A stretch of 49,724 nt of DNA, taken from the NCBI GenBank assembly GCA_035652415.1, contig DASRDW010000014.1, positions 1-49,724 of the forward strand, written 5' to 3'. This DNA is from Candidatus Angelobacter sp. GTDB taxonomy: Bacteria > Acidobacteriota > Terriglobia > Terriglobales > Acidobacteriaceae. The translations under genes and the position numbers were made by a program. Positions 16,947 to 34,901 of the stretch are shown here, piece after piece (the stretch's first letter is position 1; the number at the start of each line of letters is the position of its first letter). Under the pieces are notes generated by a model that was given only the letters and a program-made list of their open reading frames with translations, made no database searches and was not told the origin of the DNA.

Positions 16947-17426
16947 ATGAACAGAATTCGATCCACGAGATTCGCTGGAATCCTCGTGTTGGTGGTTGCG
17001 CTCTCGATATCATTGCTGGCGGAAGTGAAAGTTGAGCTGAAAGCCAGCAAGATCGTGGTTGTCAATGGCACGGAGCAGAAACAATCTGCAGACAAAGCGA
17101 TACCCGGCGCGATCATTGAGTACGTCGCAGAATATAGAAACACCGCCAAGACTTCAGTTTCCAATGTAGTTGCCACCCTCCCCGTCCCTTCTGGAATGGA
17201 ATATCTCCCCGATACAGCCGAGCCGGCGCAAGCAATGGCCAGCACGGATGACCACAACTATTCGCCTGTTCCCTTGAAACGAAGTGTCCGCGGAGCAGAC
17301 GGAAAGATGGTCGAGCAACTGGTTCCGTATTCGGAATACCGGTCGCTGCGCTGGAATCTGGGAAACATTCAGGGGGGAGCCAGCAAAAGCGTGAAAGCAA
17401 GAATGAGAGTTAAGTCAGCGAAGTAA
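16947..17426 (+). CDS. Small secreted single-domain DUF11/Ig-like protein (159 aa)
   Basis: The ATG at 16947 follows AGGAAA. The signal peptide is MNRIRSTRFAGILVLVVALSISLLA. The DUF11-type pattern is PGAIIEYVAEYRNTAKTSVSNVVATLPVPSGMEYL...RWNLGNIQGGASKSVKARMRV. Confidence 0.6.
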   Translation: MNRIRSTRFAGILVLVVALSISLLAEVKVELKASKIVVVNGTEQKQSADKAIPGAIIEYVAEYRNTAKTSVSNVVATLPVPSGMEYLPDTAEPAQAMASTDDHNYSPVPLKRSVRGADGKMVEQLVPYSEYRSLRWNLGNIQGGASKSVKARMRVKSAK

Positions 17427-17470
17427 ACAAATCCAAAAACGCAATACTCAGAAATAAGGAGAGAGAAAGT

Positions 17471-20137
17471 ATGCAAACACATTCAAGTGGGGGAAGAGTG
17501 TGCTTTGCCCGATTCATTCTGTTCGTCACATGCGTATGCCTCTTAACCTTGACCTTCGGGTCACAGGCGGCTTCAGCGCAAACTGCGGCGGGAACATCGA
17601 TCGGGAACCAAGCATCGGCTACATACACAGACAGTTCGTCCGTTTCCAGGACAGCCACCTCGAACGTGGTAACCACGGTCGTGCAACAGGTCGCCAGCCT
17701 TACGTTGACGGCCAATGGAGCCAAAACAGCGTCACCGGGTGCGGCAGTGTTCTATCCCCACACACTTACGAACACCGGCAACGGCAGTGACAGCTTTACG
17801 CTGACGCTGGCACCGGCGCAGTCGGGCGCGTTCACCCTGACCAATACGCACATCTATATCGATGCAAACGGTGATGGCGTGCCGGACAACTTCACTGATC
17901 TGACAGGCACACAAGTTACGGTGGCGCCGGGTGCTGCGAATGCATTCAAGTTCGTGATTACCGGCACCGTTCCTCCGAGCGCGACAGCCGGACAGACCAA
18001 CAACTTCTCCGTAACTGCGACTTCGGCGTTCGATAACACCAAGGCGGCGAGCGATACCGATACAACAACGGCGACTTCGAACGCGGTGATCAACATTACG
18101 AAGTCGATGAGTTCAAACTCGGGCGCAGCGGGAAGCGGCCCGTACACCGTTACTTTGACCTACACCAACAACGGCAACAACACGGCCACCACAGTCAACA
18201 TCAGCGATGCATTGCCTGCAGGCATGACCTACGTAGCTGGCAGCGGCCGCTGGAGCGTGACGGGCGCAACTGTGCTGACTGATGCGACAGGCGACGTGCA
18301 GCCGGCTGCTGGTTCGCCGCACATCGATTACAGCGTGACGGCGAATACCGTTACGGCAATCGTCGATCAGGTTGGCGCTGGCGTCTCCGGACAGCTGACC
18401 TTCCAGGTAAATATCGCTCCAGGAACCGCGCCCGGTGTTCTGGCGAACACGGCCACTGATTCCTATAACGATGGCTCAGGCACCACTGTGAACGGCTCCA
18501 GCAACACCTTCAATTTCACAGTGCGCCAAAGCGCATCCGTAACCATCAGCGATACCGGCGTGGCAGCGAACGATAACGACGGCACCATTAACGGCATCGA
18601 CACGATAAATTCCGCCGCGCAGGGCGCTACGGTCACCTTTACCGATGTTGTCACCAATACCGGCAACGGCACCGATTCATTCAACATCACCATTCCTTCC
18701 AATACATTCCCGGCAGGAACGGTCTTTACCCTTTATAAGAGTGATGGAGTCACGCCGCTCATCGATACGAACGGGGACAGCGTTCCTGACACTGGCCCGC
18801 TCGCTGCGGGAGCAAGCTACACTGTGATTGTGAAGGCCGCATTGCCGGCCGGCGCAACCGGCGGCCCGTTCAACGCCACTGCAACAGCAACCTCTACTGT
18901 GGTGGGTGCTCTGAATGCGGGCGCAAACGCCAGCATGATTGATCGCCTGGTTGCCATTACAACCAATACCGTTGATGTCACGAATAACGCCGCGATCGGC
19001 GGCCCCGGCGTGCTGGGCGTAGGCCCCGGACCGGAAGCTTCACCCGTGGTGACGAACGCCACCAATCCGGGCACGACCACAACCTTTACTCTGTTTGTCA
19101 ATAACACCAGCGGCGCCAGCGTAGCGGATTCCTACGACCTCTTGGCGTCTTCAACGACCACCTTCGGCAGCAGCAATTCGCTACCAGCAGGCTGGTCGGC
19201 AACATTCCGCTTCAGCAATGGAACGGATTGTACGGCCGCCAACCTTGGAACAGTCGTTACCAATACCGGCGTGGTGAATGGCGGAACCGCAAAGTTCATT
19301 TGCGCCGTCATCAGCATTCCCAACAACTTCGCCGCAGGCGCGCAAGCCGTGTTCTTCCAGGCAAAATCGCCGACGTCGGGCGCCCTGGACCAGGTTCACG
19401 ATCAAGTGACCGTGAACACGATTCACAACGTAACCCTGACGCCCAACGGATCAAACCAGATCTTCCCGGGCGGCTCGGTGGTGTACACGCACAACTTAAC
19501 CAACAACGGCAACGTTGCTGAAGCCATCACCTTTACCGCACCAATCACTTCTGACAGCCAGAGCGGCTGGAGTTCGGTGCTGTTCCAGGACACCAACACC
19601 AACGGCGTTCTTGACGCCGCTGACCAGGCGGTTTCAACATCGACTACCTTCACGCTCAACCCCGGACAGAGTGTGACCCTGTTCGTTAAAGTCACGTCTC
19701 CAGCCGGAGCGGCGGTAGGCGCTATTGACACCACGACTGCGCGCGCGGGCTACAACGCCACATTTGCTACAGCGCAGGACCAAACCACGGTAATTGCAGG
19801 CGAGTTGAGGCTGAGCAAAGCGCAGTCTCTGGATGCCACCTGCAGCGGCGTGGCGGGAGCGTTTGTACAAACCAACATCACCGCCGGAGCTGTTCCCGGC
19901 GCATGCGTGATTTACCAAATCACGGCGACCAACGCCGGTACCTCGAACATCACCAACGTAGTTGTCAGTGATGCGACACCGGCCTTCACCGTGTATCACA
20001 ACAATCCGGCAGCAAGCACCACGGTCGGCACGATCGTTGCTCCGGCAAAAGGAACCGCTGGAACTATCAGCGCGACAATCGGCACTCTGACTCCAGGACA
20101 GTCAGCTGTAGTCGTCTTCGCGGTGAAGATCCAGTAA
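17471..20137 (+). CDS. Secreted multi-DUF11 (conserved repeat domain) fibre/adhesin-like protein, 888 aa
   Basis: It has a signal peptide ending in ...SQAASAQT. It contains at least six repeats of the pattern xYxHTLTNTGNGSDSFTL (FTDVVTNTGNGTDSFNI, VVYTHNLTNNGNVAEAITF, VIYQITATNAGTSNITNVVVSDATPAFT). It is extremely Thr/Ala/Asn/Gly-rich and ends in ...VVVFAVKIQ. Confidence 0.75.
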   Translation: MQTHSSGGRVCFARFILFVTCVCLLTLTFGSQAASAQTAAGTSIGNQASATYTDSSSVSRTATSNVVTTVVQQVASLTLTANGAKTASPGAAVFYPHTLTNTGNGSDSFTLTLAPAQSGAFTLTNTHIYIDANGDGVPDNFTDLTGTQVTVAPGAANAFKFVITGTVPPSATAGQTNNFSVTATSAFDNTKAASDTDTTTATSNAVINITKSMSSNSGAAGSGPYTVTLTYTNNGNNTATTVNISDALPAGMTYVAGSGRWSVTGATVLTDATGDVQPAAGSPHIDYSVTANTVTAIVDQVGAGVSGQLTFQVNIAPGTAPGVLANTATDSYNDGSGTTVNGSSNTFNFTVRQSASVTISDTGVAANDNDGTINGIDTINSAAQGATVTFTDVVTNTGNGTDSFNITIPSNTFPAGTVFTLYKSDGVTPLIDTNGDSVPDTGPLAAGASYTVIVKAALPAGATGGPFNATATATSTVVGALNAGANASMIDRLVAITTNTVDVTNNAAIGGPGVLGVGPGPEASPVVTNATNPGTTTTFTLFVNNTSGASVADSYDLLASSTTTFGSSNSLPAGWSATFRFSNGTDCTAANLGTVVTNTGVVNGGTAKFICAVISIPNNFAAGAQAVFFQAKSPTSGALDQVHDQVTVNTIHNVTLTPNGSNQIFPGGSVVYTHNLTNNGNVAEAITFTAPITSDSQSGWSSVLFQDTNTNGVLDAADQAVSTSTTFTLNPGQSVTLFVKVTSPAGAAVGAIDTTTARAGYNATFATAQDQTTVIAGELRLSKAQSLDATCSGVAGAFVQTNITAGAVPGACVIYQITATNAGTSNITNVVVSDATPAFTVYHNNPAASTTVGTIVAPAKGTAGTISATIGTLTPGQSAVVVFAVKIQ

Positions 20138-20148
20138 CAAACGCGAGT

Positions 20149-20174
20149 GGGAGGCATGGGATGCCATGCCTCCC
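20149..20174 (+). other. Perfect 11-bp-stem hairpin (GGGAGGCATGG-gatg-CCATGCCTCCC) between the second and third genes of the DUF11 locus
   Basis: Read directly from the sequence. No U-tract follows (tcatccgtaag), so it is more likely a partial terminator, attenuator or mRNA-stabilising element than a canonical intrinsic terminator. Confidence 0.5.
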
Positions 20175-20249
20175 TCATCCGTAAGTCTCTGCCCGCCTCC
20201 TCTTCGGAGACGGGCTTGAGATTTCTTCCGCTTGTCGAGGAGTGTTGCC

Positions 20250-23200
20250 GTGAGTAGAGCTAGGTCCACATCCGTATTGTGGATGTTGCTGCTGGTGTTT
20301 CTCAGCACAGCATCGCGCGGAAGTGTCCCTGCCGGCAGCTCCATTGACAATCAGGCAAGTGCTTCCTACACAGCGTCTTCCGGGACCTCCACAACAGCCG
20401 ATTCCAACGTGGTTCACGTCATTACTCAGGCAGGAGCTGCGGCGCTGACAATTACCAAATCTTCCTCGCAAACCAGCGCAAAGCCGGGCGATCATCCCGC
20501 CTTTACTCTCAACGTTACTAATTCCGGCAGCGTAGACGCGGCTGGAGTCGCTGTCACCATTGATGGCGCTCCCGTTACGCGAGTTGTGATCAGCGATGCC
20601 ATCCCCAACAACACGCGCTTTACTGCGATCGTGAATGCCGGCGGAGCAACACCTCTCTATCACATTCTTGGAACTGGTGCGCAGGCTTATGTGAGCACAG
20701 CGCCCACAGATCTCTCGACGGTTGACTCCGTGGCTTTTGTTTTGACGTCCCTTGCAGCGGGCAACAGCGCCTCGTTCAGCTTCAGCGTCGCCGTCGATAG
20801 CAATGCCAGCGGAACCATCCATAACGTGAGCCAGGTTGCTTTCAATAACGGAGTGGACACAATTGCTCAGTCCAACGCAGTCGATATTCCCGTTTCCGGG
20901 CCGCCGCCGAGCATTGCCTACTATCTTGATTCCAACTTTGCGCGCACCATTCAGGCCACGGCCATGGGCTCGCCCCTGTGGATACAGATTGACGCCGCAG
21001 CCTGCAACCTCGATCCGAGCACGGTTGAGACCAAGCCTATTATTCTCAAGTCACTGCTCACCGGCGACACGGAAACTTTTCTTGCGACCGAGACCGGAGC
21101 CAACACGGGCCTGTTCCGAGTGTTGCCTTCGGTTCCAACGCGCGATGGCGCCAGCAACCCTGTCGCTTCCGGCAACAAGATCATGGAAGTTCTCAGGAAT
21201 GACCAGGTGATTGCGTCGCTCACCGGCTGCGGCGCCAGCACTGTGACCGTTGCCATTTTGATCGATCCGGCGGGCACAATTTTTGACAGCCATACCAATG
21301 CCACCATCGCGGCGGCTTCGGTCACGCTCATTGATGTCAGCGGCAACGGCAATGGCGGCCATCCCAACCAGCCCGCCACCGTGTTGCAGTTCGATGGAGT
21401 TACACCCGCGCCCAGCACCGTTGTGACCAGCGGAAATGGTCAGTTCCAGTTTCCTCAGGTGGCGCCCAGCACTTACCGCATTTCGGTTACGCCGCCGCCA
21501 AGTTTTAGCTTTCCATCCACGGTGCCGCCCGCGCAATTGCCTCCGGGACGCAACATTGATCCCTCAGCTTCCTACAACGGGACATTCACGGTGTCTGCCA
21601 GCAGCGCAACAGCAATCTTTGACGTGCCGCTCGATGCCGCGGCAACGACGCCACTGTTCGTGCAAAAAACCGCGGCACAGCCCCAGGCTGAGGTCGGTAC
21701 CTTTGTTGATTACACCGTGGAAATAAAGAACCTGCTCACCACGCCGGTCACGAACGTACAGGTGACGGATAATTTGCCGCCTGGATTTGTCTATCAGTCG
21801 CGCAGCGCCAGACTGAATGCCGCGCCCATCGCCGATCCGCCCAGCAAAGGCCCGGTGCTGATCTTTAATATCGGCACTCTGGTTCCCAATGCTGATGTAA
21901 ATCTCACGTACCGGGTGCTGATCGGGCCAGGTGCGAACATCGGCGTTGCCGTGAACCATGCCTCTGCAGCCAGCGGCACGCTGCGGTCTAACACGTCAAG
22001 CGCCGCAGTTGTGGTCACTGGAGGCGCATTCAGCGATCAAGGTTTTATCGTGGGCAAAGTTTTCCAGGATTGCAACGGCAATCACATGCAGGATGCGGGC
22101 GAACCCGGTGTCCCCGGCGTGCGGATCTATCTTGAAGACGGGACCTTTGCGATCACCGATGGACAGGGAAAATACAGCATTTATGGCGTGGCGTCTCGCA
22201 CACACATCGTAAAGGTCGATACTCAGAGCCTGCCGCAGGGCGCCAGTCTGCTCGCGATTTCCAGCCGGAACGCCGGCGACGGCGGCAGCCGCTTTGTCGA
22301 TCTGCGCTTTGGAGAAATGCAGAAGGCGGATTTTGCCATCGGCAGCTGTACGCCGGAGATGGCCCAGGAAATCGCGGCGCGGCAGAAGAACGCCGGTGAA
22401 GACAACGAGGTAGGGAAGGCTGTCAAAGCGACATTCAACGTTCAGGAGATTCAAAAAGACCCGACACAACTGAAAGCAATGCCCGCAAGCGGGATGGTGG
22501 ATCCAGCTATAGTTTCACAGGGCAGCGCGAACGCGATTGCTGTGAACTCCCTGAAGAAAGAAGTGGGTTCGCCTGCTCCGGCTTCCATCGCAGCGACCGT
22601 GCCTGCACCGGCCACAGCTCCGGCCACAGCATCGGCAGCGGAGTTGGCCAATCTCAGCAACGATCTGGGTTTTGTGGACCTTCATGACAATGATGTGCTG
22701 CCCTTTACTCAGACCAATGTGCGCATTAAGGGCACGGCCGGGAATACATTCCATCTGCTGGTGAATGGCAAGGAGGCATCAACAAAGCAGGTTGGCACAA
22801 AGACCGTGGTCAAAGATAAACAGTTGGAAGTATGGGAATTCATCGGCATCAACCTTGAACCCGGACGAAACACGGTCCAGGCGCTGCAGTTCGATCCATG
22901 GGGCAACAACCGTGGCGCTGAGTTGATTACGATCATTGCGCCAAGCAAACTGGGAAAGTTAAAGATTACGGGACGCGCCAAAACGTATCCTGCCGACGGA
23001 AAGACGCTGGTCAAGATCGCGATCAACTTGACCGATGCGGCCAATGTTCCCGTCACCGTCCGCACACCCATCACGCTGGAAACCACCGCTGGCTCGTGGA
23101 TAGTCAAAGACCTGAATCCCAACGAGCCAGGAACGCAAGTTTTCATTGAGGGCGGCAAAGCGGAATTCGATCTGCAGCCGCCGATCCAGCCGGGCCCAGC

Positions 23201-25751
23201 AGTCGTGCGCGTCAGCAGTGGCGGAGTCAGCAGTGAAGCCAAACTCGAATTTGTACCAGAGCTGCGCCCGATGGTGGCAGCCGGAGTGGTTGAATATCAG
23301 CTCAATTTTGGCGGCTTGGCGCGGAGCGCGGTGCAACCCTCATTCAATGATGGTTTCGAACAACAGCTCAACCTGTTCTCCATGCAAAATGCCGACGGTT
23401 CATTCGGCTCGTCGGGCCACGCTGCCTTGTTCCTGAAGGGCAAAATACTGGGCTCAAATCTTGTGACGCTGGCCTACGATTCCGACAAGACTACGCAAAG
23501 CCAGTTGTTCCGCGATATCCAGCCGGACCAGTTCTATCCGATCTATGGCGACTCATCTGTGCGTGGCTTTGATGCTCAATCCACCAGCAAGGCTTACCTC
23601 CGCATCGATCACGGAACCAGCTACGTTGTTTATGGCGACTTCCTGACTTCAGACCCTTCCACGGCCAACAGCTTGAGCAACTACAGCCGCAGCATGACCG
23701 GCGTACAGGAACACTACAGCAACAACCGTGTGAACTTGACCGGCTTCGCGAGCTACGATTCGCTGACCCAAGTAGTTGACGAGCTGCCAGCCAACGGAAC
23801 TTCCGGGCCATTTATCCTCTCGAATCCCAACGGGGTAGAGAACAGTGAGAAGGTTGAGGTTCTCACTCGTGACCGGAACCAGCCCTCCGTGATTCTGGAC
23901 ATCCGTGAGCTCACTCGATTTGCCGACTATGAATTTGAGCCGCTGTCAGGCGAGTTGCTCCTGAAAGCGCCTCTGCCGTCGCTCGATTCGAGTCTCAATC
24001 TTCTTTCACTGCGGATTACCTATGAAGTCAATCAAGGTGGTGACCGCTTCTGGGTTGGTGGGGGCACCGGCACCTTTAAGCTGAATAACTTCTTGCAGCT
24101 TGGTGGAACCATGGTTGATGATTCCAATCCCGCGGATCCTAACAAGCTGTTTGGAGTAAATAGCAAGCTGACTCTGCCAGGCAAGACCATGTTCAATGCG
24201 GAGTTTGCCGGCACAGACCATGAAATAACTGAAGGGCTGGGTTTCGGGTATCGCCTGGAAATGCAGCATGACGGTGAAAAGTTGAAGACCAAGGCCTACG
24301 TCAGCCGCACCGACCAGGATTTCGACAATCCGACTTCCATCGTGAATAAGGGTAGAGGCGAGGATGGACTGAAGACCAGCTACACTCTGGGGCAAGGAAT
24401 GCGCTTGCTGGGCGAATATATAAGGACTGAAGACGTAACCTTGGGAGGCGTTCAGCAGGGTGGTTATGCAGGCATTGAAAAGAGTTTCCCCGGCAACATA
24501 CAGTCTCAATTTGGTTTTCGTCACGCAGAGACGACTGCGATCCCGGCAACTCCGGACCAGACCGGCACCACTCCGAACTCCATGAATACACTGGAGGCCA
24601 AACTGAGTTTCCCGGTCCCGCATTTCAATCGCCTCACCGCAACTTCCGACTATGAGCAGGATGTTTCCGATAGCAGCCAACGGGTCCTTGCCTTTGGGGC
24701 GAACTACAGGTTTTGGGAAAAGGGCAGGGTCTATTTCCGGCAGGAAGTGATCTCATCGCTGGGCGACATCTACGCGTTGAATCCGCTACAGCGCCGCAAT
24801 ACTACCCAAATTGGAGTTGAGAGTGCCTACTTCAAAGATGCCCGTGTCTTCAGCGAGTACCGCATTCATGACGACATTGACGGTCGCGATGCCGAAGCCG
24901 CCATTGGCCTGCGCAACAACTGGCACATTGCCAAAGGACTCACCGGCAACACCACAGTCGAGAGCGTGCGCACGCTGAACAACGTTATAGATGGAGTCAG
25001 TATCAATTCTCTGGCTCTTACGGGAGCGTTGGAGTACACAGCTCATGAGAATTGGAAAGCATCTGCCCGGTCGGAGTGGCGTGGCTCAACTAATGGTGAC
25101 AGCATTCTCGGAACGATCGGTTTTGCTGCCCGCTTGTCTGATGCCTGGTCATTCCTGGGCCGCAACATTATTTCAGATACCACCACGAAAGGTACAACAG
25201 AGACCAGAAACATCCAGGACCGCTTGCAGGCCGGCTTCGCATTGCGCGACTTTGAGCGCAACCGCTGGAACGCCCTGGCCATGATGGAATTGAAGAATGA
25301 CAATGACAATTCGCAGCCGACAAACCTGATAAACACTCGCGTCGCCATTTTCTCAACTACTGCCAACTATCAGGTGGCTGCGCCGTTCACACTTTCGGCC
25401 CGTTATGCGGCGGAGTGGAACCTCGATAACACCAGCGGACTTTCAACCTCGGCGACAACGCAGCTGGTCGGTATTCGCGAAACCTGGGATGTGGGCAAGC
25501 GCTGGGATGTGGGCGCAACCTTCAGCACCATGTTCAGCGGCGCTGCCAACTCGCGCCAGTATGAAATGGGGCCGGAGTTCGGATATCGCGTGATATCCAA
25601 CATGTGGGTTTCCACCGGCTACAACTTCACCGGCTTCCGTAATGATGATCTCGCTGGCGAGAACGTGACACGCCGCGGAGCGTTTGTGCGCATGCGCTTC
25701 AAGTTCGATGAAAACATCTTTAGCCCGCGCAAGGAGGCCCAGCAGCAATGA
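20250..25751 (+). CDS. Giant outer-membrane protein: N-terminal DUF11/SdrD-B/Big-like domains fused to a C-terminal ~830-aa beta-barrel-like region
   Basis: The GTG at 20250 is preceded by GAGGAG; the track's TTG start is at 20232. The signal is SRARSTSVLWMLLLVFLSTASRG. DUF11 motifs include FTLNVTNSGSVDAAGVAV and VDYTVEIKNLLTTPVTNVQVTDNLPPGF. An SdrD-B-like motif is VFQDCNGNHMQDAGEPGVPGVRIYLEDG. From about 23240 onward there are at least 20 alternating amphipathic strand pairs (LSLRITYEV, GFGYRLEMQH, VLAFGANYRFW, LALTGALEYTA...). The region ends in the OMP-type terminus GAFVRMRFKF. Confidence 0.75.
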   Translation: MSRARSTSVLWMLLLVFLSTASRGSVPAGSSIDNQASASYTASSGTSTTADSNVVHVITQAGAAALTITKSSSQTSAKPGDHPAFTLNVTNSGSVDAAGVAVTIDGAPVTRVVISDAIPNNTRFTAIVNAGGATPLYHILGTGAQAYVSTAPTDLSTVDSVAFVLTSLAAGNSASFSFSVAVDSNASGTIHNVSQVAFNNGVDTIAQSNAVDIPVSGPPPSIAYYLDSNFARTIQATAMGSPLWIQIDAAACNLDPSTVETKPIILKSLLTGDTETFLATETGANTGLFRVLPSVPTRDGASNPVASGNKIMEVLRNDQVIASLTGCGASTVTVAILIDPAGTIFDSHTNATIAAASVTLIDVSGNGNGGHPNQPATVLQFDGVTPAPSTVVTSGNGQFQFPQVAPSTYRISVTPPPSFSFPSTVPPAQLPPGRNIDPSASYNGTFTVSASSATAIFDVPLDAAATTPLFVQKTAAQPQAEVGTFVDYTVEIKNLLTTPVTNVQVTDNLPPGFVYQSRSARLNAAPIADPPSKGPVLIFNIGTLVPNADVNLTYRVLIGPGANIGVAVNHASAASGTLRSNTSSAAVVVTGGAFSDQGFIVGKVFQDCNGNHMQDAGEPGVPGVRIYLEDGTFAITDGQGKYSIYGVASRTHIVKVDTQSLPQGASLLAISSRNAGDGGSRFVDLRFGEMQKADFAIGSCTPEMAQEIAARQKNAGEDNEVGKAVKATFNVQEIQKDPTQLKAMPASGMVDPAIVSQGSANAIAVNSLKKEVGSPAPASIAATVPAPATAPATASAAELANLSNDLGFVDLHDNDVLPFTQTNVRIKGTAGNTFHLLVNGKEASTKQVGTKTVVKDKQLEVWEFIGINLEPGRNTVQALQFDPWGNNRGAELITIIAPSKLGKLKITGRAKTYPADGKTLVKIAINLTDAANVPVTVRTPITLETTAGSWIVKDLNPNEPGTQVFIEGGKAEFDLQPPIQPGPAVVRVSSGGVSSEAKLEFVPELRPMVAAGVVEYQLNFGGLARSAVQPSFNDGFEQQLNLFSMQNADGSFGSSGHAALFLKGKILGSNLVTLAYDSDKTTQSQLFRDIQPDQFYPIYGDSSVRGFDAQSTSKAYLRIDHGTSYVVYGDFLTSDPSTANSLSNYSRSMTGVQEHYSNNRVNLTGFASYDSLTQVVDELPANGTSGPFILSNPNGVENSEKVEVLTRDRNQPSVILDIRELTRFADYEFEPLSGELLLKAPLPSLDSSLNLLSLRITYEVNQGGDRFWVGGGTGTFKLNNFLQLGGTMVDDSNPADPNKLFGVNSKLTLPGKTMFNAEFAGTDHEITEGLGFGYRLEMQHDGEKLKTKAYVSRTDQDFDNPTSIVNKGRGEDGLKTSYTLGQGMRLLGEYIRTEDVTLGGVQQGGYAGIEKSFPGNIQSQFGFRHAETTAIPATPDQTGTTPNSMNTLEAKLSFPVPHFNRLTATSDYEQDVSDSSQRVLAFGANYRFWEKGRVYFRQEVISSLGDIYALNPLQRRNTTQIGVESAYFKDARVFSEYRIHDDIDGRDAEAAIGLRNNWHIAKGLTGNTTVESVRTLNNVIDGVSINSLALTGALEYTAHENWKASARSEWRGSTNGDSILGTIGFAARLSDAWSFLGRNIISDTTTKGTTETRNIQDRLQAGFALRDFERNRWNALAMMELKNDNDNSQPTNLINTRVAIFSTTANYQVAAPFTLSARYAAEWNLDNTSGLSTSATTQLVGIRETWDVGKRWDVGATFSTMFSGAANSRQYEMGPEFGYRVISNMWVSTGYNFTGFRNDDLAGENVTRRGAFVRMRFKFDENIFSPRKEAQQQ

Positions 25752-28700
25752 GCCTCATGCAACAAAAGAGGGTCTGCCGCGCGGCGTGGAAGACGCTCTG
25801 TCTTCTGCGGACGGCGGTGTTGTCTCCTCGATTTGTGTGGGGATGCGCAGTCTTCTTGCTTCTGCTGGCCAGCATCGTTGACGCCAGGGCGGCGGATGTG
25901 CGCGACCAGGTCTACGCTGTAGGTGTCGACGTTCGAAATATCTACTTGGTGAATGCGAACGGGACGGTCACCAGCCAATTCAGCAACTACTCGGCCACTG
26001 CATCGGCAGCTGCAGCACAGCGAGCCAGCGATGGCGTGATCTACTTCATCACTCAGGTCGCAAACGGTACGGTCTTTACTTGGAACCCTGCAACACCCGC
26101 GACAGCGCCCGTGCAGCTCGGCACCACCGGAGCCTCAGTTCCATATATTCCTCGCCTGGCATTCTCGGCGAGCGGCGTGCTATACGGCGTGGACACGAAC
26201 ACCGCCAACCTTTACATCATTGATCAATCTACGGGCGCGGCAACCGTGGTAGGAGCGCTTTCAGGTGTGCCGGTGAACCTGGGAGGCGACATTGGGTTTG
26301 GACCGGATGGGACCTTATATATGGTCGCCGGCGTTACGATTTATACCGTCCCGCTGACCGGCGGAGCCGTTACCAGTCTGGGGACGATCAGCGGAATTTC
26401 CAGAAATGCGACTGCGATTGTCGGCATAACCTTCAATGCCAGTGGTCAGATGCTCGTTGCGGATGACCAAACGCCCGCGAAGCTCTATACAGTCGCTCTA
26501 CCTTCACGTGTTGCCACGGCGCTTTCCGGAACCATGGCCACATCGCAGGGCGATCTGGCCAGCGCCCCCCGCGTGCAGATCAGCGGTACTGTTTTTGAAG
26601 ACGTCAATTACGGAGGCGGCGCCGGGCGAAGTCTCGCTTCTTCTGCGGGTGTGGGTGTTGCCAACGCACGCGTGGAGCTTTATGACGCCTCCGGGAATTT
26701 TGTCGCTTTCACGACCACGAATGCGTCCGGAAGTTACACCCTGACCGGTGCGCCGGGACTGACTTATACCATCCGTGTGGTCAATTCATCCGTTGACTCA
26801 ACCCGTCCCGGATCGGTTGCAGCGCTCATTGGCGTGCAGACTTTTCGCACGAGTGGGTTGACAGGTACGGTCGGCACAGCGGACACAAACCGTGTCGGCG
26901 GCGAGGATCCCACCAAGATAGATGCAGGTAATGGCAGCACAACTTTGGCTGCTCTGACCACATCGACTACTACCGCTGAATCAATCACCAGCGTTTCGCT
27001 CGGTGCAAGCAGTGTTACCGGAATCGATTTTGGATTCAACTTCGACACTATTGTAAGCACGCGCGATTCTGGGCAAGGGACTCTGCGTCAATTCATTACC
27101 AACAGCAACACGCTGACGAATGCGGGACTCAGCCAATCAGGCCAAACCGCCGGCGTGGAAACCAGCATCTTTATGATCTCCAATGGCGCTGCGGTGCCCG
27201 GGTTGCGCGCTGGGCTCACGAATCAGTTGACCGGCAGCGTGGCGCAAATCATTCCCGCGACCCAGTTGCCCGCAATCACTGATAGCAACACATCAATCGA
27301 CGGAACCACGCAAACGAGCAACCTGAACGATACAAACTCAGGGACTCTGGGCGCCGGCGGCACGGTTGGAGTGGATTCGCTGACCTTGTCAACAGTGAAC
27401 AGGCCGGACGTACAGATCAGTACGGCCCAGGGAACGATTGGGCTGGGAATCCAGATTCAGGGCAGCAATACCCGGCTGCGCGGCCTTGCTATTTTTGGTT
27501 TCGGGACCGCAGCCAATACCAACGGCAGCGCCAACATTGAAATTGAGACCGGCGGCAGCAACGCCAGCCTCAAGCAATTAATCGTGGGAACCAGCGCTAC
27601 CGCTTTCAGCGATCCCGGAGCGACCGTGCGCTCACGCGGTGACAATATTCGCTCCAACGGCGGCGATAGCGGAACGGTGCAAAACAGCCTGATCGGATTC
27701 TCACAAGGGAAAGGCATTGCTCTGGAAGCGACATCGACCGGCTGGACCATCCAAAATAATGAGGTGCGCGGCAACGGGATTAACAATCCAGGATTCGGCG
27801 GGATGAACATCGGTACCGGTTCCACTGCCACCGTCAGTGGCAATTTGTTTATTGCTTCGCAGGGGCCGGGAATCGATACGTCGCAAAGTTCCGGCGGCTA
27901 TACGCTCACTGACAACACGGTCACCGGCAACGGTACGGGCAGCGGCGCGACACTCGTGGATGCCGGAATTCGCATCTTTGGCAGCGGGAACACGGTGAGT
28001 AAGAACGTGATCTCCAGCAACGTGGGCGCTGGAATACTGGTGACGTTGGGCTCGCCGACTACCACCATCACGCGAAACTCTATTTCCCTGAACGGGACCG
28101 CAGGCGGCACGCCGACCCATGAAGTCGGCATCGACTTGCTCTCCGCGAGCGACAATCAATTGTTAGGCACTTCTCCGTTTGTTACGCTGAATTCTGCTGG
28201 AACACATACGGGCGGCAATGGCTTGTTGAATTATCCGATTCTACAAACCGCAACCATCAGCTCAGGCATACTCACGCTTACTGGATTCGCTCGACCGGGC
28301 TCAGTCATCGAACTTTTCATCGCCAATCCCGATCCTTCAGGTTTTGGACAGGGTCAGACCTTCGTGACGACCCTGACTGAAGGCTCAGCGTCTGACCTGG
28401 ACAACACGACTGGAACTTACGGCCCAGCTGCGATCAACGGAATCAGCCAGGGAACCGATACCACGAACCGTTTCAAATTCGTCATCACAGTGCCGTCAGG
28501 CGTGGGAACAGGCACCGTGCTGACGGCAACGGCTACGCTGGGCGGCGCAACATCAGAGTTCAGCGGCAATGTCACCGTGTCAGTCTCAACCGTCGTCAAC
28601 GGAACCGTCTACCTCGATACCAATCATAATGGCGCATTGGATAGCGGTGAGACGTGGACCAGCGGCGCTCCCGTTTTCGTGAACCTGGTCTCGAGTGGGG

Positions 28701-29971
28701 CCGTCGTTCAATCGGTTACAGTACCTGCCGGCGCAGGCACATTTTCATTTACCAATGTGGCGGCCGGAACGTACACAATCGTGCTGACGAACTCAGCTGC
28801 GTCAACTGTGGCGGCTGCGCCCACTGGATTTGCTTTTGTCACGCCCGGCACCGGGCAGTTGCAACTCACAGTTTCCAATGGCGTTCTCAACAATGAGAAT
28901 TTCGGGCTCTTTAAAGGCAGTATGGTGACCGGAAGGATTTTTAAAGACAACGGCGCAGGTGGCGGCACGGCCAACAACGGAATCCTTGATGGCGCCGAGG
29001 CAGGGCTCTCCGGCGTATCCATAAAAGCCACTGACGGCGGCAGCACCGTGTTTGATACAGAGGTGTCCGGCAGCGACGGTTCTTACTCGCTTTTCATCAC
29101 AGCCGGCGCGACTACTGTGGCGATCGTCAAAACCAATCCAGCAAACTACATTGCGACCGGCGCGTCGGTTGGCACCACGGTAGGCGGCTACAATCGCGCC
29201 ACAGACACTGTTACCTTCACCAAGGCGACTGAAGGCTTTTTTACCGGCGTGAATTTCGGCGTGGTTCCTGTGAACACTTTCCAGGCTGACGGCGCGCAGC
29301 AGGCGCTTCCAAACACTACGCTCTTCTACGCGCATATTTTCAGTCCAGGAACAGCAGGGCAGGTCACCTTTACCATTGCGTCAACAACATCCCCGAGCAA
29401 TGTTCTGTTCAGCCACATTCTTTATCAGGACACCGCTTGCAGCGGCGTTATCACTGCCAGTGATCCAGTGATTTCTGGTCCGGTTACCACCGTTGCGGGA
29501 ACGAATCTATGTATCCTGATGAAGGTTACCGTGCCGAGCGGTGCACCCTTGAATTCGAGCGATGCAGCCGTGTTGACCGCCAGCTTCTCTTATACCAATG
29601 CCAACCCGGCACTCAATGCCACATATACAGTGAAAGACCTGACCACAGTGGGTACGCCAACTACTGCAGGTTTGCGTCTGGAGAAGGCTGTTGATAAGGC
29701 AACTGCCCTGCCGGGCGCGAACCTCACTTACACGCTGACATTCACCAATGACAGCAGCGGCGCCATCTCCAACATCGTCATCAATGATGCGACACCTGCA
29801 TACACAAATTTTGTCAGCGCCGCCTGCGGTGCTCCGTTGCCAGCCAGCCTGACAGCGTGCTCCGTTACTGCGCCCGCAGCTGGCCAGACGGGAAACATTC
29901 AGTGGACATTCACGGGTACCCTCAATCCCAGCCAGACCGGGACGGTCTCGTTTGTCGTCAAAATCCAGTAA
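25748..29971 (+). CDS. Secreted 1407-aa multidomain protein: propeller-like N-terminus, SdrD-B/CnaB-like domains, parallel beta-helix repeats, C-terminal DUF11
   Basis: Its ATG overlaps the upstream stop (ATGA). The N-terminus has Val/Gly/Thr-rich repeated blades (VIYFIT, VLYGVD, LYMVAG, QMLVAD). SdrD-B-like motifs are ISGTVFEDVNYGGGAG, VNGTVYLDTNHNGALDSGE and VTGRIFKDNGAGGGTANNGILDG. Beta-helix repeats include NNEVRGNGINNPG, NTVTGNGTGSG, NVISSNVGAGI and NSISLNGTAGG. The terminal DUF11 is LTYTLTFTNDSSGAISNIVINDATPAYT...VSFVVKIQ. Confidence 0.75.
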   Translation: MSLMQQKRVCRAAWKTLCLLRTAVLSPRFVWGCAVFLLLLASIVDARAADVRDQVYAVGVDVRNIYLVNANGTVTSQFSNYSATASAAAAQRASDGVIYFITQVANGTVFTWNPATPATAPVQLGTTGASVPYIPRLAFSASGVLYGVDTNTANLYIIDQSTGAATVVGALSGVPVNLGGDIGFGPDGTLYMVAGVTIYTVPLTGGAVTSLGTISGISRNATAIVGITFNASGQMLVADDQTPAKLYTVALPSRVATALSGTMATSQGDLASAPRVQISGTVFEDVNYGGGAGRSLASSAGVGVANARVELYDASGNFVAFTTTNASGSYTLTGAPGLTYTIRVVNSSVDSTRPGSVAALIGVQTFRTSGLTGTVGTADTNRVGGEDPTKIDAGNGSTTLAALTTSTTTAESITSVSLGASSVTGIDFGFNFDTIVSTRDSGQGTLRQFITNSNTLTNAGLSQSGQTAGVETSIFMISNGAAVPGLRAGLTNQLTGSVAQIIPATQLPAITDSNTSIDGTTQTSNLNDTNSGTLGAGGTVGVDSLTLSTVNRPDVQISTAQGTIGLGIQIQGSNTRLRGLAIFGFGTAANTNGSANIEIETGGSNASLKQLIVGTSATAFSDPGATVRSRGDNIRSNGGDSGTVQNSLIGFSQGKGIALEATSTGWTIQNNEVRGNGINNPGFGGMNIGTGSTATVSGNLFIASQGPGIDTSQSSGGYTLTDNTVTGNGTGSGATLVDAGIRIFGSGNTVSKNVISSNVGAGILVTLGSPTTTITRNSISLNGTAGGTPTHEVGIDLLSASDNQLLGTSPFVTLNSAGTHTGGNGLLNYPILQTATISSGILTLTGFARPGSVIELFIANPDPSGFGQGQTFVTTLTEGSASDLDNTTGTYGPAAINGISQGTDTTNRFKFVITVPSGVGTGTVLTATATLGGATSEFSGNVTVSVSTVVNGTVYLDTNHNGALDSGETWTSGAPVFVNLVSSGAVVQSVTVPAGAGTFSFTNVAAGTYTIVLTNSAASTVAAAPTGFAFVTPGTGQLQLTVSNGVLNNENFGLFKGSMVTGRIFKDNGAGGGTANNGILDGAEAGLSGVSIKATDGGSTVFDTEVSGSDGSYSLFITAGATTVAIVKTNPANYIATGASVGTTVGGYNRATDTVTFTKATEGFFTGVNFGVVPVNTFQADGAQQALPNTTLFYAHIFSPGTAGQVTFTIASTTSPSNVLFSHILYQDTACSGVITASDPVISGPVTTVAGTNLCILMKVTVPSGAPLNSSDAAVLTASFSYTNANPALNATYTVKDLTTVGTPTTAGLRLEKAVDKATALPGANLTYTLTFTNDSSGAISNIVINDATPAYTNFVSAACGAPLPASLTACSVTAPAAGQTGNIQWTFTGTLNPSQTGTVSFVVKIQ

Positions 29972-30676
29972 GGTGACCAACCTTTTATTTTAGAACGCTG
30001 TTGATTAAACAGCTCTGTGCGCTTGCGCTTTCATAGCTGAAGCCAGCGGTTTTGATTGGCGCAGAGAGTCAGTTGCCTTGCGATGAACTTACGCATGGAG
30101 TACAGGTTGACAAGGACTGTTTCATTTCCGCAGCGCTAGTCTTCAGTCAGCTTTGCGCGTGCATTTCAAACGTATCTATCCTGATGCTTTTTGATAAGAC
30201 GAATGCCTCTTCCAGTTTGGATCTTGTTCTCGCGCAATTGAACCTGATTTCAAAATAGGGAAAACTTTCGGCCTACCGTCGAGGGAATAGAGGTACAAGT
30301 TATAACAGCTTATTTTTTGTGAAGTTTTTGGAGCCATAATCCTTGACTGGCCAAAGGACTTCGGCTAATTTTTATCCCCGAGTGAGATCCGTTTCGTTCT
30401 CATTTCGGGAAGACTCCTTCCACGGACTTGTGATGTTGTAGGCAGTGGAGAGTAGTGGGAACCACCACAACTTTCAACTTGCCATAACGCCGGTGGACAG
30501 CTGCTTTGTCCATTGAGCTGAAAATCATCCACAACACTGTTTGCATCTACCGCAATCAGTTCGTAGCTCTTTTTATATTTATCCAGTGATTTGGGTGAAA
30601 GAGATTGATGTGAAAAAAAGGCGCTTTTCCGCCAGCTTTTCCGCCATTCATCTTGAACGCCGCGTTTCTGATCACT

Positions 30677-30692
30677 CGGACATGCAATTGCT
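30677..30692 (+). promoter_or_regulatory. Weak candidate sigma-54 promoter CGGACA-TGCAA-TTGCT
   Basis: GG and GC are at the correct spacing and the -12 TTGCT is perfect, but the -24 half is poor apart from GG. It lies about 48 nt upstream of the peptide gene ATG. Confidence 0.3.
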
Positions 30693-30739
30693 GCTTTCGT
30701 TGTACACACGTACAGCGATTGCTGAAAGAGAGAACTGCA

Positions 30740-30994
30740 ATGAAGAAGAATAAGATGTTGATGCTGGGAAGCGTGGGCGCTATGCTCCTGAGCGGTGCAT
30801 TGTTGATTACGCCCGCCAGCGCCACCACAAGCTCCTTTTGCACTACTTGTTCCAAACTAATCAATGGAACAGCTCTTGAGGTGTCGAACTGCAAAACATC
30901 CACCACGAATGTGTGCTTTTGTCCGCTGACGCCTCCTCTGTTCTCTAATAACTGCGTTCCGCCTGCTGGAACTGCAGACAAAGCGTTGAAATAG
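30740..30994 (+). CDS. Small secreted six-cysteine peptide precursor (84 aa; about 56-aa mature part)
   Basis: The signal is MKKNKMLMLGSVGAMLLSGALLITPASA. The mature part is TTSSFCTTCSKLINGTALEVSNCKTSTTNVCFCPLTPPLFSNNCVPPAGTADKALK. The longer 30653 ORF start lacks a signal peptide and looks less plausible. Confidence 0.5.
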   Translation: MKKNKMLMLGSVGAMLLSGALLITPASATTSSFCTTCSKLINGTALEVSNCKTSTTNVCFCPLTPPLFSNNCVPPAGTADKALK

Positions 30995-31006
30995 AGCAAC
31001 CCATTT

Positions 31007-31546
31007 ATGCGCAGCCCACTTTTGTTTGCGATCCTGGGACTTCTCGCGGTGGAGGCATTTTTACTTCCACGCACCAGTAAGGACTTCCAGATCCTGCAAA
31101 AAGCACGCATGGAGATGATGCCGGAGAGTGGCCGTCCTTTGTTGCTTGGCCCTTTTGTCGCATACGACAGGGATGGCCATCCTCTGGCGCTTACTACCGA
31201 CGAAACCAGGTGGATTCTGCCGATCGTCATACATTCCAACCGGGCGAATTCTGATCTTAATTATCTGGAAAGACTGCGAAAAGCGTTCCCCAGCCGCGCC
31301 CTTGCGCTTATAGGAGTATGTGACCAGAGCCCATGCAGCGCCAATGACCAAAACGTCCGAAGCGCCAGCAGTGATTTCCCAATTCTTGTTTATGGCTCGT
31401 ATGCTCCGCTGAAAGACATTCTGCGCTTTGACGATCACAATGAAGTTTTGCTGACAAACCAGTTCTGGGGAGTGGAAAAATCGCTGCCTCGTGCTTCTTC
31501 TGCGGAAGAGATGGCTGAGAGCTTAAAGAAAGTGACAAGGCCATGA
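31007..31546 (+). CDS. Membrane-anchored or secreted TlpA-like thioredoxin-fold protein lacking the CxxC motif
   Basis: The N-terminal hydrophobic segment is MRSPLLFAILGLLAVEAFLL. The TlpA-like layout is FVAYDRDGHPLALTTDETRWILPIVIHSNRANSDLNYLERLRKAF...ALIGVCD...EVLLTNQFWGV, with SNRANS where WCxxC is expected. Assignment is by pattern only. Confidence 0.45.
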   Translation: MRSPLLFAILGLLAVEAFLLPRTSKDFQILQKARMEMMPESGRPLLLGPFVAYDRDGHPLALTTDETRWILPIVIHSNRANSDLNYLERLRKAFPSRALALIGVCDQSPCSANDQNVRSASSDFPILVYGSYAPLKDILRFDDHNEVLLTNQFWGVEKSLPRASSAEEMAESLKKVTRP

Positions 31547-33279: not shown

Positions 33280-33681
33280 ATGAAGTTTGCGCTATTTTCC
33301 AAGATCATAATTGCATCGCTGGCATTAATGCTCGCCGGCAGCGCGTTCGCAATCAATGATTCCCATAAGGTTAATTTTAAAATCTCAGAACCCACGCAGG
33401 TGAATGGCACGCAGTTGCCTGCAGGCCAATATCAAGCGCGTTGGGAAGGCTCTGGCCCTGCGGTCCAGGTAAGCATCATTCAAAACATGAAAGTGGTGGC
33501 CACAGTGCCGGGCCAACTGGTTGACAGAGACCATGCAGCACTATACAACGCAGTTGAAACCAAAAATAATTCCAACGGTCAACCTGAGCTAACGGCGCTG
33601 CTTTTTTCTGGCAAGAAATATACGTTGCAATTGGGCTCAGAATCAGCCAATGCGCAAGGTAAGACGGAGTCAACCGACTAA
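33280..33681 (+). CDS. Small secreted protein of unknown function (133 aa)
   Basis: The ATG at 33280 follows GAGGAG. The signal peptide is MKFALFSKIIIASLALMLAGSAFA. The mature part is beta-rich (QLPAGQYQARWEGSGPAVQVSII...). Confidence 0.7.
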   Translation: MKFALFSKIIIASLALMLAGSAFAINDSHKVNFKISEPTQVNGTQLPAGQYQARWEGSGPAVQVSIIQNMKVVATVPGQLVDRDHAALYNAVETKNNSNGQPELTALLFSGKKYTLQLGSESANAQGKTESTD

Positions 33682-33713
33682 AGAGCAGAGTGAAAATACT
33701 TGAGCTTACAAGA

Positions 33714-33741
33714 GGGAGCAGGCAACTGCTCCCTTTTTTTT
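33714..33741 (+). terminator. Rho-independent terminator
   Basis: GGGAGCAG-gcaa-CTGCTCCC is followed by TTTTTTTT, 33 nt after the stop codon at 33681. Confidence 0.8.
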
Positions 33742-33914
33742 CCGTTCCAAGTATGCAAGAACTTTCACGGCCAGAGGAGACTGAGTTTTTGCATGGGATG
33801 CCGGACTCTCTACAGGTCACTGGTAGTGCAATATTCATGCAGGACTGCAGTAGCGACTTACCATTCATGTATACTTTTTGAGAACTGGCCGGAACATTAG
33901 TGGAGGAGCTTGAT

Positions 33915-34319
33915 ATGCAATTTGATTTGCGGCAATCCCTTCGTATGGCGATTGCCACTGCGTTGGTTGCACTCTTCATTGTTCCCACGGAGGCGCTCGC
34001 GCAGAGCCACGTGGTCAGCCCCGCCGACCTGCAACAAAAAGCAGTAGCAGCGTCGCAGGCGAGACAGCACAACCTGGAAACGGTACAGCAGTTTCTCTCT
34101 ACCCCAACTGCGGAAAAAGCCATGCAATCGGCCAAGATGGACCCGCAGCAGGTAAAGACGGCTGTTTCCACGCTTAATGACCAAGAATTGGCCCAACTTG
34201 CCGCGCGTGCTGATAAGGCGCAGGCCGACTTTGCCGCCGGTAATCTCAGTGAACGTGATTTGGTTCTGATCATTCTGGGTGTTGCGGTGCTGATCCTGAT
34301 TATTGTGGCAGTCCGCTGA
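33915..34319 (+). CDS. Small exported protein with an N-terminal signal and a C-terminal TM anchor (reminiscent of the PA2779 family)
   Basis: The ATG at 33915 follows GGAGGAG. The signal is MQFDLRQSLRMAIATALVALFIVPTEALA. The middle is Gln/Ala-rich and helical. The C-terminal anchor is LVLIILGVAVLILIIVAVR. The family name comes from memory of gene neighbourhoods and is unverified. Confidence 0.55.
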   Translation: MQFDLRQSLRMAIATALVALFIVPTEALAQSHVVSPADLQQKAVAASQARQHNLETVQQFLSTPTAEKAMQSAKMDPQQVKTAVSTLNDQELAQLAARADKAQADFAAGNLSERDLVLIILGVAVLILIIVAVR

Positions 34320-34328
34320 CGAAATTTC

Positions 34329-34901
34329 ATGGTTCGAAACATGCCGCAGAGACTTAAAGCATTACCGCGTCTCTGCGGCTTTGCTTTGGCAGCAACTCTT
34401 CTTGCTGTAAGCGTTTTTGCTGCGCCCCCCGGAGTCTGGCTTGACGTGCCATTTATCAAGCAAGAGAAAGATGGCTGCGGTCCGGCCAGCATTGCCATGG
34501 TGATGCAGTACTGGCTTAAGCAGAAAGCGCGTCCTGTTGACGCAAGCGCTGACGTATCTGTGATCCAGCACGCTCTTGTTTCCGGGAAAGAACACGGAAC
34601 CCGCGCTTCTGCCATGGAGCAATACTTCCAACAGCACGGCTTTCAGACTTTCGCCTTCGCAGGCAAATGGGATGACCTGAAACAACATCTGGATAAAGGA
34701 CGTCCGCTGATCGTGGCGCTCAAACCGTCTGCACTGGAAAAATCTTTGCATTATGTGGTGGTGGTTGGTCTGGATCCTGAACAAGATGTTGTGCTCGTGA
34801 ATGATGCTGCCCAGCGTAAACTGCTTAAAGAAGAACGAACAAGTTTTGAAAGCCAGTGGAACGCCGTGGGGCGATGGACATTGCTGGCGCTGCCAAAGTA
34901 A
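34329..34901 (+). CDS. Secreted C39-like (papain-fold) cysteine peptidase
   Basis: It has a signal peptide (LAATLLAVSVFAAPPG). The catalytic Gln/Cys context is VPFIKQEKDGCGPASIAMVMQYW. The His/Asp context is LHYVVVVGLDPEQDVVLVNDAAQ. Confidence 0.7.
   Translation: MVRNMPQRLKALPRLCGFALAATLLAVSVFAAPPGVWLDVPFIKQEKDGCGPASIAMVMQYWLKQKARPVDASADVSVIQHALVSGKEHGTRASAMEQYFQQHGFQTFAFAGKWDDLKQHLDKGRPLIVALKPSALEKSLHYVVVVGLDPEQDVVLVNDAAQRKLLKEERTSFESQWNAVGRWTLLALPK

Follow-up and report, generated by a model that had tools for sequence, protein, structure and literature searches.

In chaperone-usher pili, Sec-exported subunits are strung together by an N-terminal extension that fills the incomplete fold of the previous subunit, the tip adhesin comes without such a donor, a large outer-membrane (OM) barrel sits at the base of the fibre, the operon encodes a small Ig-fold protein alongside the major subunit and a hairpin follows the major-subunit gene. 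Sortase pili (SpaA, RrgB, Spy0128) are covalent polymers whose shaft, tip and base pilins consist of CnaA/CnaB-type isopeptide domains, and in SpyTag/SpyCatcher (the split CnaB2 of FbaB; PMC6539128) a domain deprived of its terminal strand binds the missing piece in trans, the two being locked by a spontaneous isopeptide bond. Counterparts to these traits, some found and some predicted, come together in a locus of four co-directional genes, g1 to g4 (16947-29971, + strand), in a 49,724-nucleotide stretch of Candidatus Angelobacter sp. DNA (contig DASRDW010000014.1, positions 1-49,724 of the forward strand; the window in what follows). In function it appears closest to chaperone-usher pili and in chemistry to sortase pili and SpyTag/SpyCatcher, and its barrel-passenger topology recalls autotransporters.

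An earlier note on this DNA had assigned the repeats encoded here to DUF11 (PF01345), which stands, and had pictured the family as best known from Gram-positive, archaeal and chlamydial proteins, which is outdated: DUF11 has since been renamed CLIPPER, a CnaA-like fold in which an Asp catalyses isopeptide bonding between Lys and Asn (K715, N806 and D748 in PDB 9IFR), and is documented in Gram-negative adhesins (PMC12617251). The locus shares with these fibrillar adhesins the family and the Lys, Asp and Asn positions; the bond described there is, however, intramolecular, and no barrel partner, operon or split terminal domains are reported (PMC12617251; 9IFR). The CLIPPER survey is silent on export and OM partners (the words 'barrel' and 'outer membrane' are absent from its text; PMC12617251), and neither the barrel family nor the operon nor the split terminal CLIPPER domains presented below turned up in the open-access literature that we searched. 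To the question of how Gram-negatives export and anchor fibres of isopeptide domains, the locus offers a testable answer, namely a dedicated barrel family (about 3,100 clusters, at least 571 species) in a fixed four- or five-gene operon, with donor and acceptor half-domains that would serve as a simple sequence rule predicting subunit order. To our minds, these split terminal domains and the donor/acceptor rule, as read from sequence, are a new finding.

Open reading frame (ORF) calling in the window left only small gaps or overlaps between the genes, and inspection of the translations found a signal-peptide-like sequence at all four N-termini, which bears out the four co-directional, tightly spaced signal-peptide genes of the earlier note; the ATGA overlap by which it had coupled g3 to g4 lies at 25748.

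16947-17426 (+): g1, 159 aa; secreted single CLIPPER-like beta-sandwich with no donor motif and no catalytic Asp
17471-20137 (+): g2, 888 aa; candidate shaft subunit with N-terminal donor and C-terminal acceptor
20232-25751 (+): g3, 1839 aa from a TTG start; candidate base subunit fused to a barrel
25748-29971 (+): g4, 1407 aa; candidate tip adhesin with an acceptor and no donor peptide

Since homologues reach E-values down to 0, these are real genes rather than chance ORFs. For g3, TTG 20232 is the longest-ORF start, and a GTG at 20250 with GAGGAG in front of it (1833 aa) is the likelier true start judging from the sequence.

We are highly confident that the locus encodes a surface fibre plus a dedicated novel OM barrel, and incline, by a smaller degree, towards a Sec-dependent fibre (pilus or fibrillar adhesin) that is assembled at, and anchored by, this very large barrel and whose subunits are joined through split domains. 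In such a fibre g4, which has an acceptor only and a propeller/beta-helix head, would be the distal tip adhesin; g2, with donor and acceptor, would be the repeating shaft subunit that polymerises head-to-tail; and g3, with a donor only, would terminate the fibre and form the base, its N-terminal donor being inserted into the last g2 while the C-terminal ~830 aa form the anchoring OM barrel. Each join would be a completed split CLIPPER (CnaA-like) domain, in which the acceptor gives the first ~7 strands together with Lys and the catalytic Asp and the N-terminus of the next subunit gives the last two strands with the Asn. Such a join would probably lead to a spontaneous intermolecular Lys-Asn isopeptide bond, that is, to a natural, sortase-free counterpart of SpyTag/SpyCatcher.

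Domains were assigned by Pfam and NCBIfam searches, and the DUF11 scores of g2, g3 and g4 (33.8-63.3 bits) lie above the PF01345 cut-off of 24.6 bits. NCBIfam returned TIGR01451 (DUF11) as its only match, weakly for g1 (E 2e-5), which has no Pfam family, and no type IX secretion system (T9SS) C-terminal domain or RTX/type I secretion system (T1SS) signature. The 888-aa g2, described beforehand as mostly DUF11 repeats, indeed matches DUF11 in Pfam and holds ~6 CLIPPER-like domains by a profile built in this analysis. Pfam finds DUF11 twice, DUF7925, CarboxypepD_reg and SdrD_B in g3, which runs from signal peptide and donor peptide through a CLIPPER/DUF7925/CarboxypepD_reg/SdrD_B stalk, a Pro/Ala-rich linker and an Ig-like domain to the ~830-aa barrel, and g4 is made of a DUF6923 propeller-like head, CarboxypepD_reg, a right-handed beta-helix (Beta_helix), two SdrD_B domains and, at its end, DUF11/DUF7927. 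Of the domain calls in the earlier note, DUF11, SdrD-B, propeller and beta-helix hold up in Pfam/NCBIfam, while its Big-like domain in g3 is present only as a weak Invasin_D3/Big_1 match ahead of the barrel, below cut-off.

The donor/acceptor rule rests on the following half-domains.

17579-17695 (+): g2 donor peptide, aa 37-75, QTAAGTSIGNQASATYTDSSSVSRTATSNVVTTVVQQVA; putative last two CLIPPER strands including the isopeptide-type Asn
19790-20134 (+): g2 acceptor; C-terminal CLIPPER without its last two strands, with Lys (LRLSK) and Asp (VVSDATPA), ending ...FAVKIQ*
20322-20429 (+): g3 donor peptide, SVPAGSSIDNQASASYTASSGTSTTADSNVVHVITQ; donor motif near the N-terminus
29663-29968 (+): g4 acceptor; shortened C-terminal CLIPPER with Lys (LRLEK) and Asp (VINDATPA), ending ...FVVKIQ*

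The C-terminal domains of g1, g2 and g4 all end at position 84-85 of the 114 in PF01345 (2-85 for the g4 match); an internal domain of g3 spans 3-110. The same holds across loci: with a 125-position profile iterated from that g3 domain, 144 C-terminal-most domains end at 90-100 and internal domains at 110-125, and the homologues of g2 and g4 stop 1-5 residues past a conserved '...F.VKI' strand. At the other chain end, 50 of 61 g2 homologues carry, by a strict pattern, the donor consensus 'P.AGT.IGNQASATYTD.S....TSN.V.T.VQQVAS' right behind the signal-peptide cleavage site. In g3 homologues the motif is looser: a strict pattern detects it at 38 of 52 fused loci, with visible variants in most of the others, and a loose form, [ILV]xNx[AGTI] within the first 170 aa, is present in 52 of the 55 g3 homologues with intact N-termini. 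No g4 (0/45) or g1 (0/53) homologue has the motif, nor does any of five split-type stalk proteins (see below), whose loci are without g2 and g4; its presence in the base protein hence co-occurs with that of g2 and g4.

Profile comparisons show the donor and acceptor half-domains to be complementary in sequence. In hhalign, acceptors cover columns 3-100 of the 146 in a complete-domain profile (E 4e-16), and donor peptides continue from the end of the acceptors, on columns 104-136 (P 0.0013). Moreover, the donor hidden Markov model (HMM) matches internal g2 sites 6-7 residues past acceptor-HMM matches (E 2.7e-6, 6e-5 and 8.5e-4), so that, in cis, acceptor and donor add up to one intact domain. 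When aligned to 9IFR, the invariant Asn of the donor ('I.N.A') comes to lie on Asn806 and the Lys of the acceptor motif 'L.L.K' on K715; Lys and Asp motifs are kept in 47 of 56 g2 and 44 of 46 g4 acceptors. In the terminal domains, the Lys-Asp-Asn triad is therefore divided between two chain ends.

Several points weigh against complementation and the fibre that would be built on it. With the short donor profile, hhalign reaches a probability of just 18%, a shuffled peptide extends the PF01345 alignment in chimeric hmmscan as well as the donor does, and when donors are compared with complete internal domains by Smith-Waterman, 75-108 of 2,000 shuffles of this low-complexity Ser/Thr/Ala/Val sequence score equally; in our eyes, only the profile-level tests of donor/acceptor complementarity carry weight. 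In addition, g1 is confidently modelled as a self-contained sandwich and so may neither need nor accept a strand, the barrel lumen that g2 and g4 would use would also hold the linker of g3 itself, and the conserved N-terminal motif could be a targeting signal instead. Taken further, the last point would make g3 a self-sufficient autotransporter-like adhesin whose barrel reads the motif as a targeting or secretion signal, and g1, g2 and g4 independent, co-regulated CLIPPER proteins that form no heteropolymeric fibre. This scenario would sit well with the passenger-then-barrel order of g3 (type Va logic), with the moderate donor alignment statistics and with split-type loci, where one stalk protein suffices and g1, g2 and g4 are missing. 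We nonetheless consider it unlikely, as a targeting signal would be expected on g4 and g1 too, where it never occurs (0/45, 0/53), as the motif corresponds to exactly those strands that the C-terminal domains miss and is contiguous with acceptor-like sequence internally, and as Lys and Asp are retained in domains without any Asn partner in cis. Taking both sides together, strand complementation in trans between subunits is, on sequence grounds, probable.

As for the intermolecular covalent bond, and likewise for transit through the barrel, we see the case as evenly balanced. A strand complementation that is non-covalent, like that of classical chaperone-usher pili, would require Lys, Asp and Asn to be kept for folding or other reasons and seems rather improbable to us. 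That not every DUF11 domain makes isopeptide bonds (PMC12617251) and that the first full g2 domain is without the isopeptide Lys would agree with it, yet the three residues behind the 9IFR bond show conservation across phyla and are distributed between two partners, and it is specifically g1 that lacks the Asp, suggesting that Asp matters where it is kept.

g1 itself is predicted by AlphaFold2 (AF2) as a 10-strand beta-sandwich (pLDDT 87), for which the Foldseek matches listed are weak only, namely carbohydrate-binding modules and the pilin RrgB, the latter a further likeness to sortase pili. It ends in a shortened CLIPPER-like domain without catalytic Asp; among 52 homologues, the Asp position can be located in 49, and these have T, V, N or I there, never D. 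We also considered a PapD-like two-domain chaperone (PF00345/PF02753) and rejected it, because g1 has no Pfam family and forms a single sandwich with no PapD or FimC among the Foldseek matches listed. Being acceptor-like albeit without the Asp, g1 would most likely cap donor strands reversibly in the periplasm, a role for which our own expectation is nevertheless low.

The second pillar of the proposed fibre is the C-terminal region of g3, which the earlier note had taken for a barrel outside the known families, naming its fold and its family match, next to gene neighbourhood, as the points on which that reading could be refuted.

23232-25751 (+): predicted barrel domain, g3 aa 1001-1839; unclassified family, ends in FVRMRFKF + 14 aa
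23790-23999 (+): best-conserved segment of the domain, with short inserted strands, g3 aa ~1187-1256 (...GTSGPF.LS..NG..NSEKVEVLTRDRNQPSVIL...), from alignment conservation and AF2 secondary structure

On fold and on family, the analysis came out in favour of that reading. AF2, run with a 55-sequence alignment, predicts a barrel-type, nearly all-beta protein of ~40 long antiparallel strands (pLDDT 78, pTM 0.68), in which turns of 2-4 residues alternate with longer loops as they do in outer-membrane proteins; dyad hydrophobicity fits a barrel in part, and the FVRMRFKF motif and the Foldseek matches listed against PDB, all of them large OM barrels (LptD, SlpA, MtrB, OprC/Cir/BtuB, FimD), are in keeping with one as well. 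At TM-scores of 0.15-0.3 none of these matches is close, and no family model was hit: in its last 839 aa, g3 matches nothing in Pfam even at E<=10 and no PDB sequence, and the Pfam and NCBIfam models of ushers, TonB-dependent receptors, Omp85, autotransporters and porins all fail to match g3. The prediction thus supports the OM beta-barrel fold class without a close solved relative.

From the model we estimate roughly 32-40 strands, which would make the barrel larger than the 'usher-sized' one of the earlier note (an usher has 24). By standard barrel geometry this would correspond to a backbone diameter of roughly 60-75 A, which would leave room for folded Ig-type domains. In T9SS, the single-chain barrel of SprA is likewise very large, with 36 strands, and passes folded cargo. 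The most conserved stretch of the barrel, g3 aa ~1090-1290, contains the motifs FYPIYGDSS and EKVEVLTRDRNQP in the alignment, and at aa ~1187-1256 the AF2 model places short strands between the early long ones, possibly a plug-like insertion as in ushers.

Being wide enough in principle for folded, cross-linked Ig-type domains, the barrel would probably be the export conduit as well: cross-linked domains would exit tip-first and the g3 stalk last, leaving its linker to span the lumen as in autotransporters. The fullest version of this scheme, an unrecognised diderm pilus pathway present in many phyla, with tip-first polymerisation of giant rod-like subunits, isopeptide locks, extrusion through a ~32-40-strand barrel and g1 as 'reverse chaperone' for donors, is one that we put forward tentatively, at somewhat less than even chances. 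If true, it would amount to a new OM assembly and secretion route, to a covalent pilus that would be the first in diderms to form independently of sortase, and to one of the largest single-chain barrels known, and it would provide natural Tag/Catcher pairs for protein engineering.

A barrel that mainly tethers or conducts would be another option, either as an SlpA/OmpM-like structural tether or porin or as a nutrient channel with a SusC/Oar-type CarboxypepD_reg extension, with the CLIPPER proteins forming an S-layer-like coat. We regard it as very unlikely. SlpA and LptD are the top Foldseek matches, g3 has a CarboxypepD_reg-like domain and many operons include an OmpA-like peptidoglycan-binding gene, all of which would suit such a role; the TM-scores of these top matches are, however, only 0.15-0.26, SLH, TonB-plug and TonB_dep_Rec matches are missing, and the tip/shaft/base polarity and the adhesin-like head of g4 are better explained by a polar fibre.

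Further support for g2 as the major subunit of the proposed fibre may come from the RNA that follows it.

20141-20224 (+): two RNA hairpins directly after the g2 stop, the first an 11-bp perfect stem GGGAGGCAUGG/CCAUGCCUCCC

Their minimum free energy is -52.1 kcal/mol as opposed to -31.2 +/- 3.6 in shuffles (z -5.8). A hairpin of -20 kcal/mol or below follows g2 in 75% of 56 loci, compared with 15% for g1, 40% for g3 and 24% for g4, and in other loci and most phyla the post-g2 hairpins are unrelated in sequence and similar in strength. Scans of the window for sigma-70 promoters and intrinsic terminators gave no more matches than chance; the consensus terminator scan missed the post-g2 hairpins because no U-tract follows them. 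They are likely to be an intra-operon attenuator or mRNA stabiliser. Fimbrial operons have a stem-loop behind the gene of the major subunit, papA for example, and by analogy the hairpin fits a major subunit that is produced in larger amounts than assembly and minor components. Because g1 and g2 lie on one side of the hairpin, g1 is probably produced at a level similar to that of g2. Together with the donor/acceptor split of the CLIPPER domain, this conserved hairpin strengthens the parallel to chaperone-usher operons that had been drawn for the locus from its gene content.

That parallel is one of arrangement. The likeness in strand donation, which is suggested by how the profiles complement each other and by which subunits carry donors and acceptors, holds by analogy only and in a different fold, and there is no sequence relation to ushers or PapD chaperones. 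Where an usher has 24 strands, the barrel here has ~830 aa and 32-40 predicted strands and is fused to the base subunit; the subunits are multidomain rods of 900-1,800 aa that would give two CnaA-like strands rather than one Ig strand, and the link is predicted to be covalent. An usher proper (PF00577 N-, plug- and C-domains) was rejected, as neither g3 nor, at E<=10, its C-terminal 839 aa match and FimD, with TM-scores of 0.19-0.29, fits no better than LptD or OprC. The sortase-type alternative was dismissed for want of an LPXTG motif, the subunits ending 1-5 residues past the last acceptor strand (...VKIQ*), and of a sortase among the flanking ORFs scanned; here a diderm is the host, the bond between subunits would form autocatalytically within a split domain, and the anchor would be an OM barrel and not peptidoglycan. 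SpyTag/SpyCatcher, for its part, is engineered and joins Lys to Asp in a CnaB domain, whereas the locus appears to use a natural, CnaA-like CLIPPER domain and a Lys-Asn pair for polymerisation.

Type V secretion resembles the locus in that a barrel is covalently joined to an Ig-repeat passenger. We discarded it as an assignment, given that PF03797, PF01103, PF11924, IAT_beta and POTRA all fail to match and the barrel region has ~830 aa; the barrel is far larger than one of 12-16 strands, and extra, putatively polymerising subunits are present here. A TonB-dependent receptor (plug PF07715 plus PF00593, 22 strands) was excluded in the same way, with no match and Foldseek TM-scores to OprC, Cir and BtuB of about 0.18-0.20. 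More broadly, the absence of PapD/FimC, PapC/FimD, autotransporter, TpsB, T1SS, T9SS and sortase signatures that the earlier note had reported was reproduced with Pfam and NCBIfam. Archaeal threads (Saci_0406; PMC9715654), tafi (PMC11821415) and TasA-type fibres also consist of Sec- or Tat-exported subunits with N-terminal donor strands and have no usher homologue, and threads apparently form spontaneous intermolecular isopeptide bonds from Asn57 to the N-terminal amine of subunit n+2 (PMC9715654). Their hosts, in contrast, have no outer membrane or barrel, and their subunit folds are unrelated.

The barrel family is widespread. At E<=1e-3 it comprises 3,129 representatives of 50%-identity clusters (1,311 at E<=1e-30), most of them 1,900-2,300 aa long with the barrel at the C-terminus, and scanning one genome per species confirmed at least 571 barrel loci. 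The closest locus among the matches listed, at 93% identity, is from a Candidatus Angelobacter (Acidobacteriota) metagenome-assembled genome (MAG). Existing annotations call the homologues 'hypothetical protein', 'DUF11 domain-containing protein' or 'large repetitive protein'. In a synteny sample of 86 loci, whose ORFs were searched with the four window proteins, about 50 from at least six phyla have the order g1-g2-g3-(OmpA-like)-g4, with g1 homologues heading the operon and g2 homologues in conserved position in about 50 loci each; the genes are thus adjacent and in the same order, which settles the neighbourhood check in favour of the earlier note. Carriers of this order include Acidobacteriota, Nitrospirota, Geobacteraceae, Gemmatimonadota and Entotheonella, the Betaproteobacteria Polaromonas, Massilia, Methylibium, Gallionella and Rhodoferax, the Gammaproteobacteria Acinetobacter, Alkanindiges, Agitococcus, Fluviicoccus and Steroidobacteraceae, and, in Verrucomicrobiota, Opitutaceae, Oleiharenicola and Chthoniobacteraceae. 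The OmpA-like gene between g3 and g4 is often present and is missing from acidobacterial versions, including that of the window. Cultured carriers, which make experiments feasible, include Massilia oculi, M. brevitalea, Oleiharenicola lentus, Alkanindiges illinoisensis and Acinetobacter dispersus ANC 4105, ANC 3929 and ANC 4470.

A second, simpler architecture of the barrel family is found in five split-type loci (L001 from Hydrogenophaga, L003, L035, L069 and L085). In these, an ATGA couples the gene of a 2,650-2,820-aa CLIPPER/DUF7933/SdrD_B stalk protein to that of a ~1,050-aa barrel protein (signal peptide, Ig-like domain and barrel), an OmpA-family gene comes next, and g1, g2 and g4 were not found; in the Hydrogenophaga locus (L001:1584-14250) a rhomboid protease gene also follows. 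Since the split-type stalk ends in SdrD_B plus a 'F.DL.fGE..rADF..gSC' module that equals g3 aa ~610-720, g3 of the window corresponds to stalk and barrel fused at the Pro/Ala-rich linker. Judged by its gene content, the split type shows that the barrel works with CLIPPER proteins even as a separate polypeptide, i.e. in trans. That the barrel is always partnered with CLIPPER-type rods, fused or separate, argues for a dedicated OM device of those rods.

Some operons depart from the basic set. A Polaromonas MAG has a second g1-like gene (L018:18957-20855), extra CLIPPER/DUF7933 genes come after the barrel gene in some operons, and in one (L005:14344-24344) extra proteins of 949 aa, 1,229 aa and >4,400 aa are encoded behind it, which suggests variable sets of accessory or tip subunits. 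Some family members (P0258, P0335, P0351, P0356, P0363, P0370 and P0115) run 300-500 aa past the barrel; for P0115, the precomputed annotation shows OmpA and TSP_3 domains, and these members are probably fusions with the OmpA-like partner. A contig binned as Synechococcus sp. UW140 (L083) contains a complete g1-g4 operon about 40% identical to that of the window, either a real cyanobacterial occurrence or a binning error.

The neighbours of the operon are unrelated to g1-g4. Upstream, on the opposite strand, lie a molybdopterin oxidoreductase and an Fe-S/NrfD pair, and downstream a redoxin and a TPR protein; a Pfam scan of the flanking ORFs found no sortase, T1SS, type II secretion system, T9SS, usher or Omp85 gene. 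With such neighbours and no T9SS C-terminal domain, g1-g4 as T9SS or T1SS cargo was likewise rejected. Four downstream ORFs of 179-379 aa are without Pfam match, two of which overlap on opposite strands so that at least one is probably not a gene:

30556-31239 (-): ORF without Pfam match
31007-31546 (+): ORF without Pfam match
33476-34615 (-): ORF without Pfam match
38601-39476 (-): ORF without Pfam match

About 10 kb upstream of the operon, and with no link to it that we could see, a sigma-54-dependent response regulator (Response_reg, Sigma54_activat and HTH_8) stands beside a secreted GH71-like protein with PKD domains (3505-4944 and 5189-6823). Finally, 44758-45906 holds an AAA_21/AAA_15 (AbiEii-like/OLD-type) ATPase gene of a family that is often met in defence islands.

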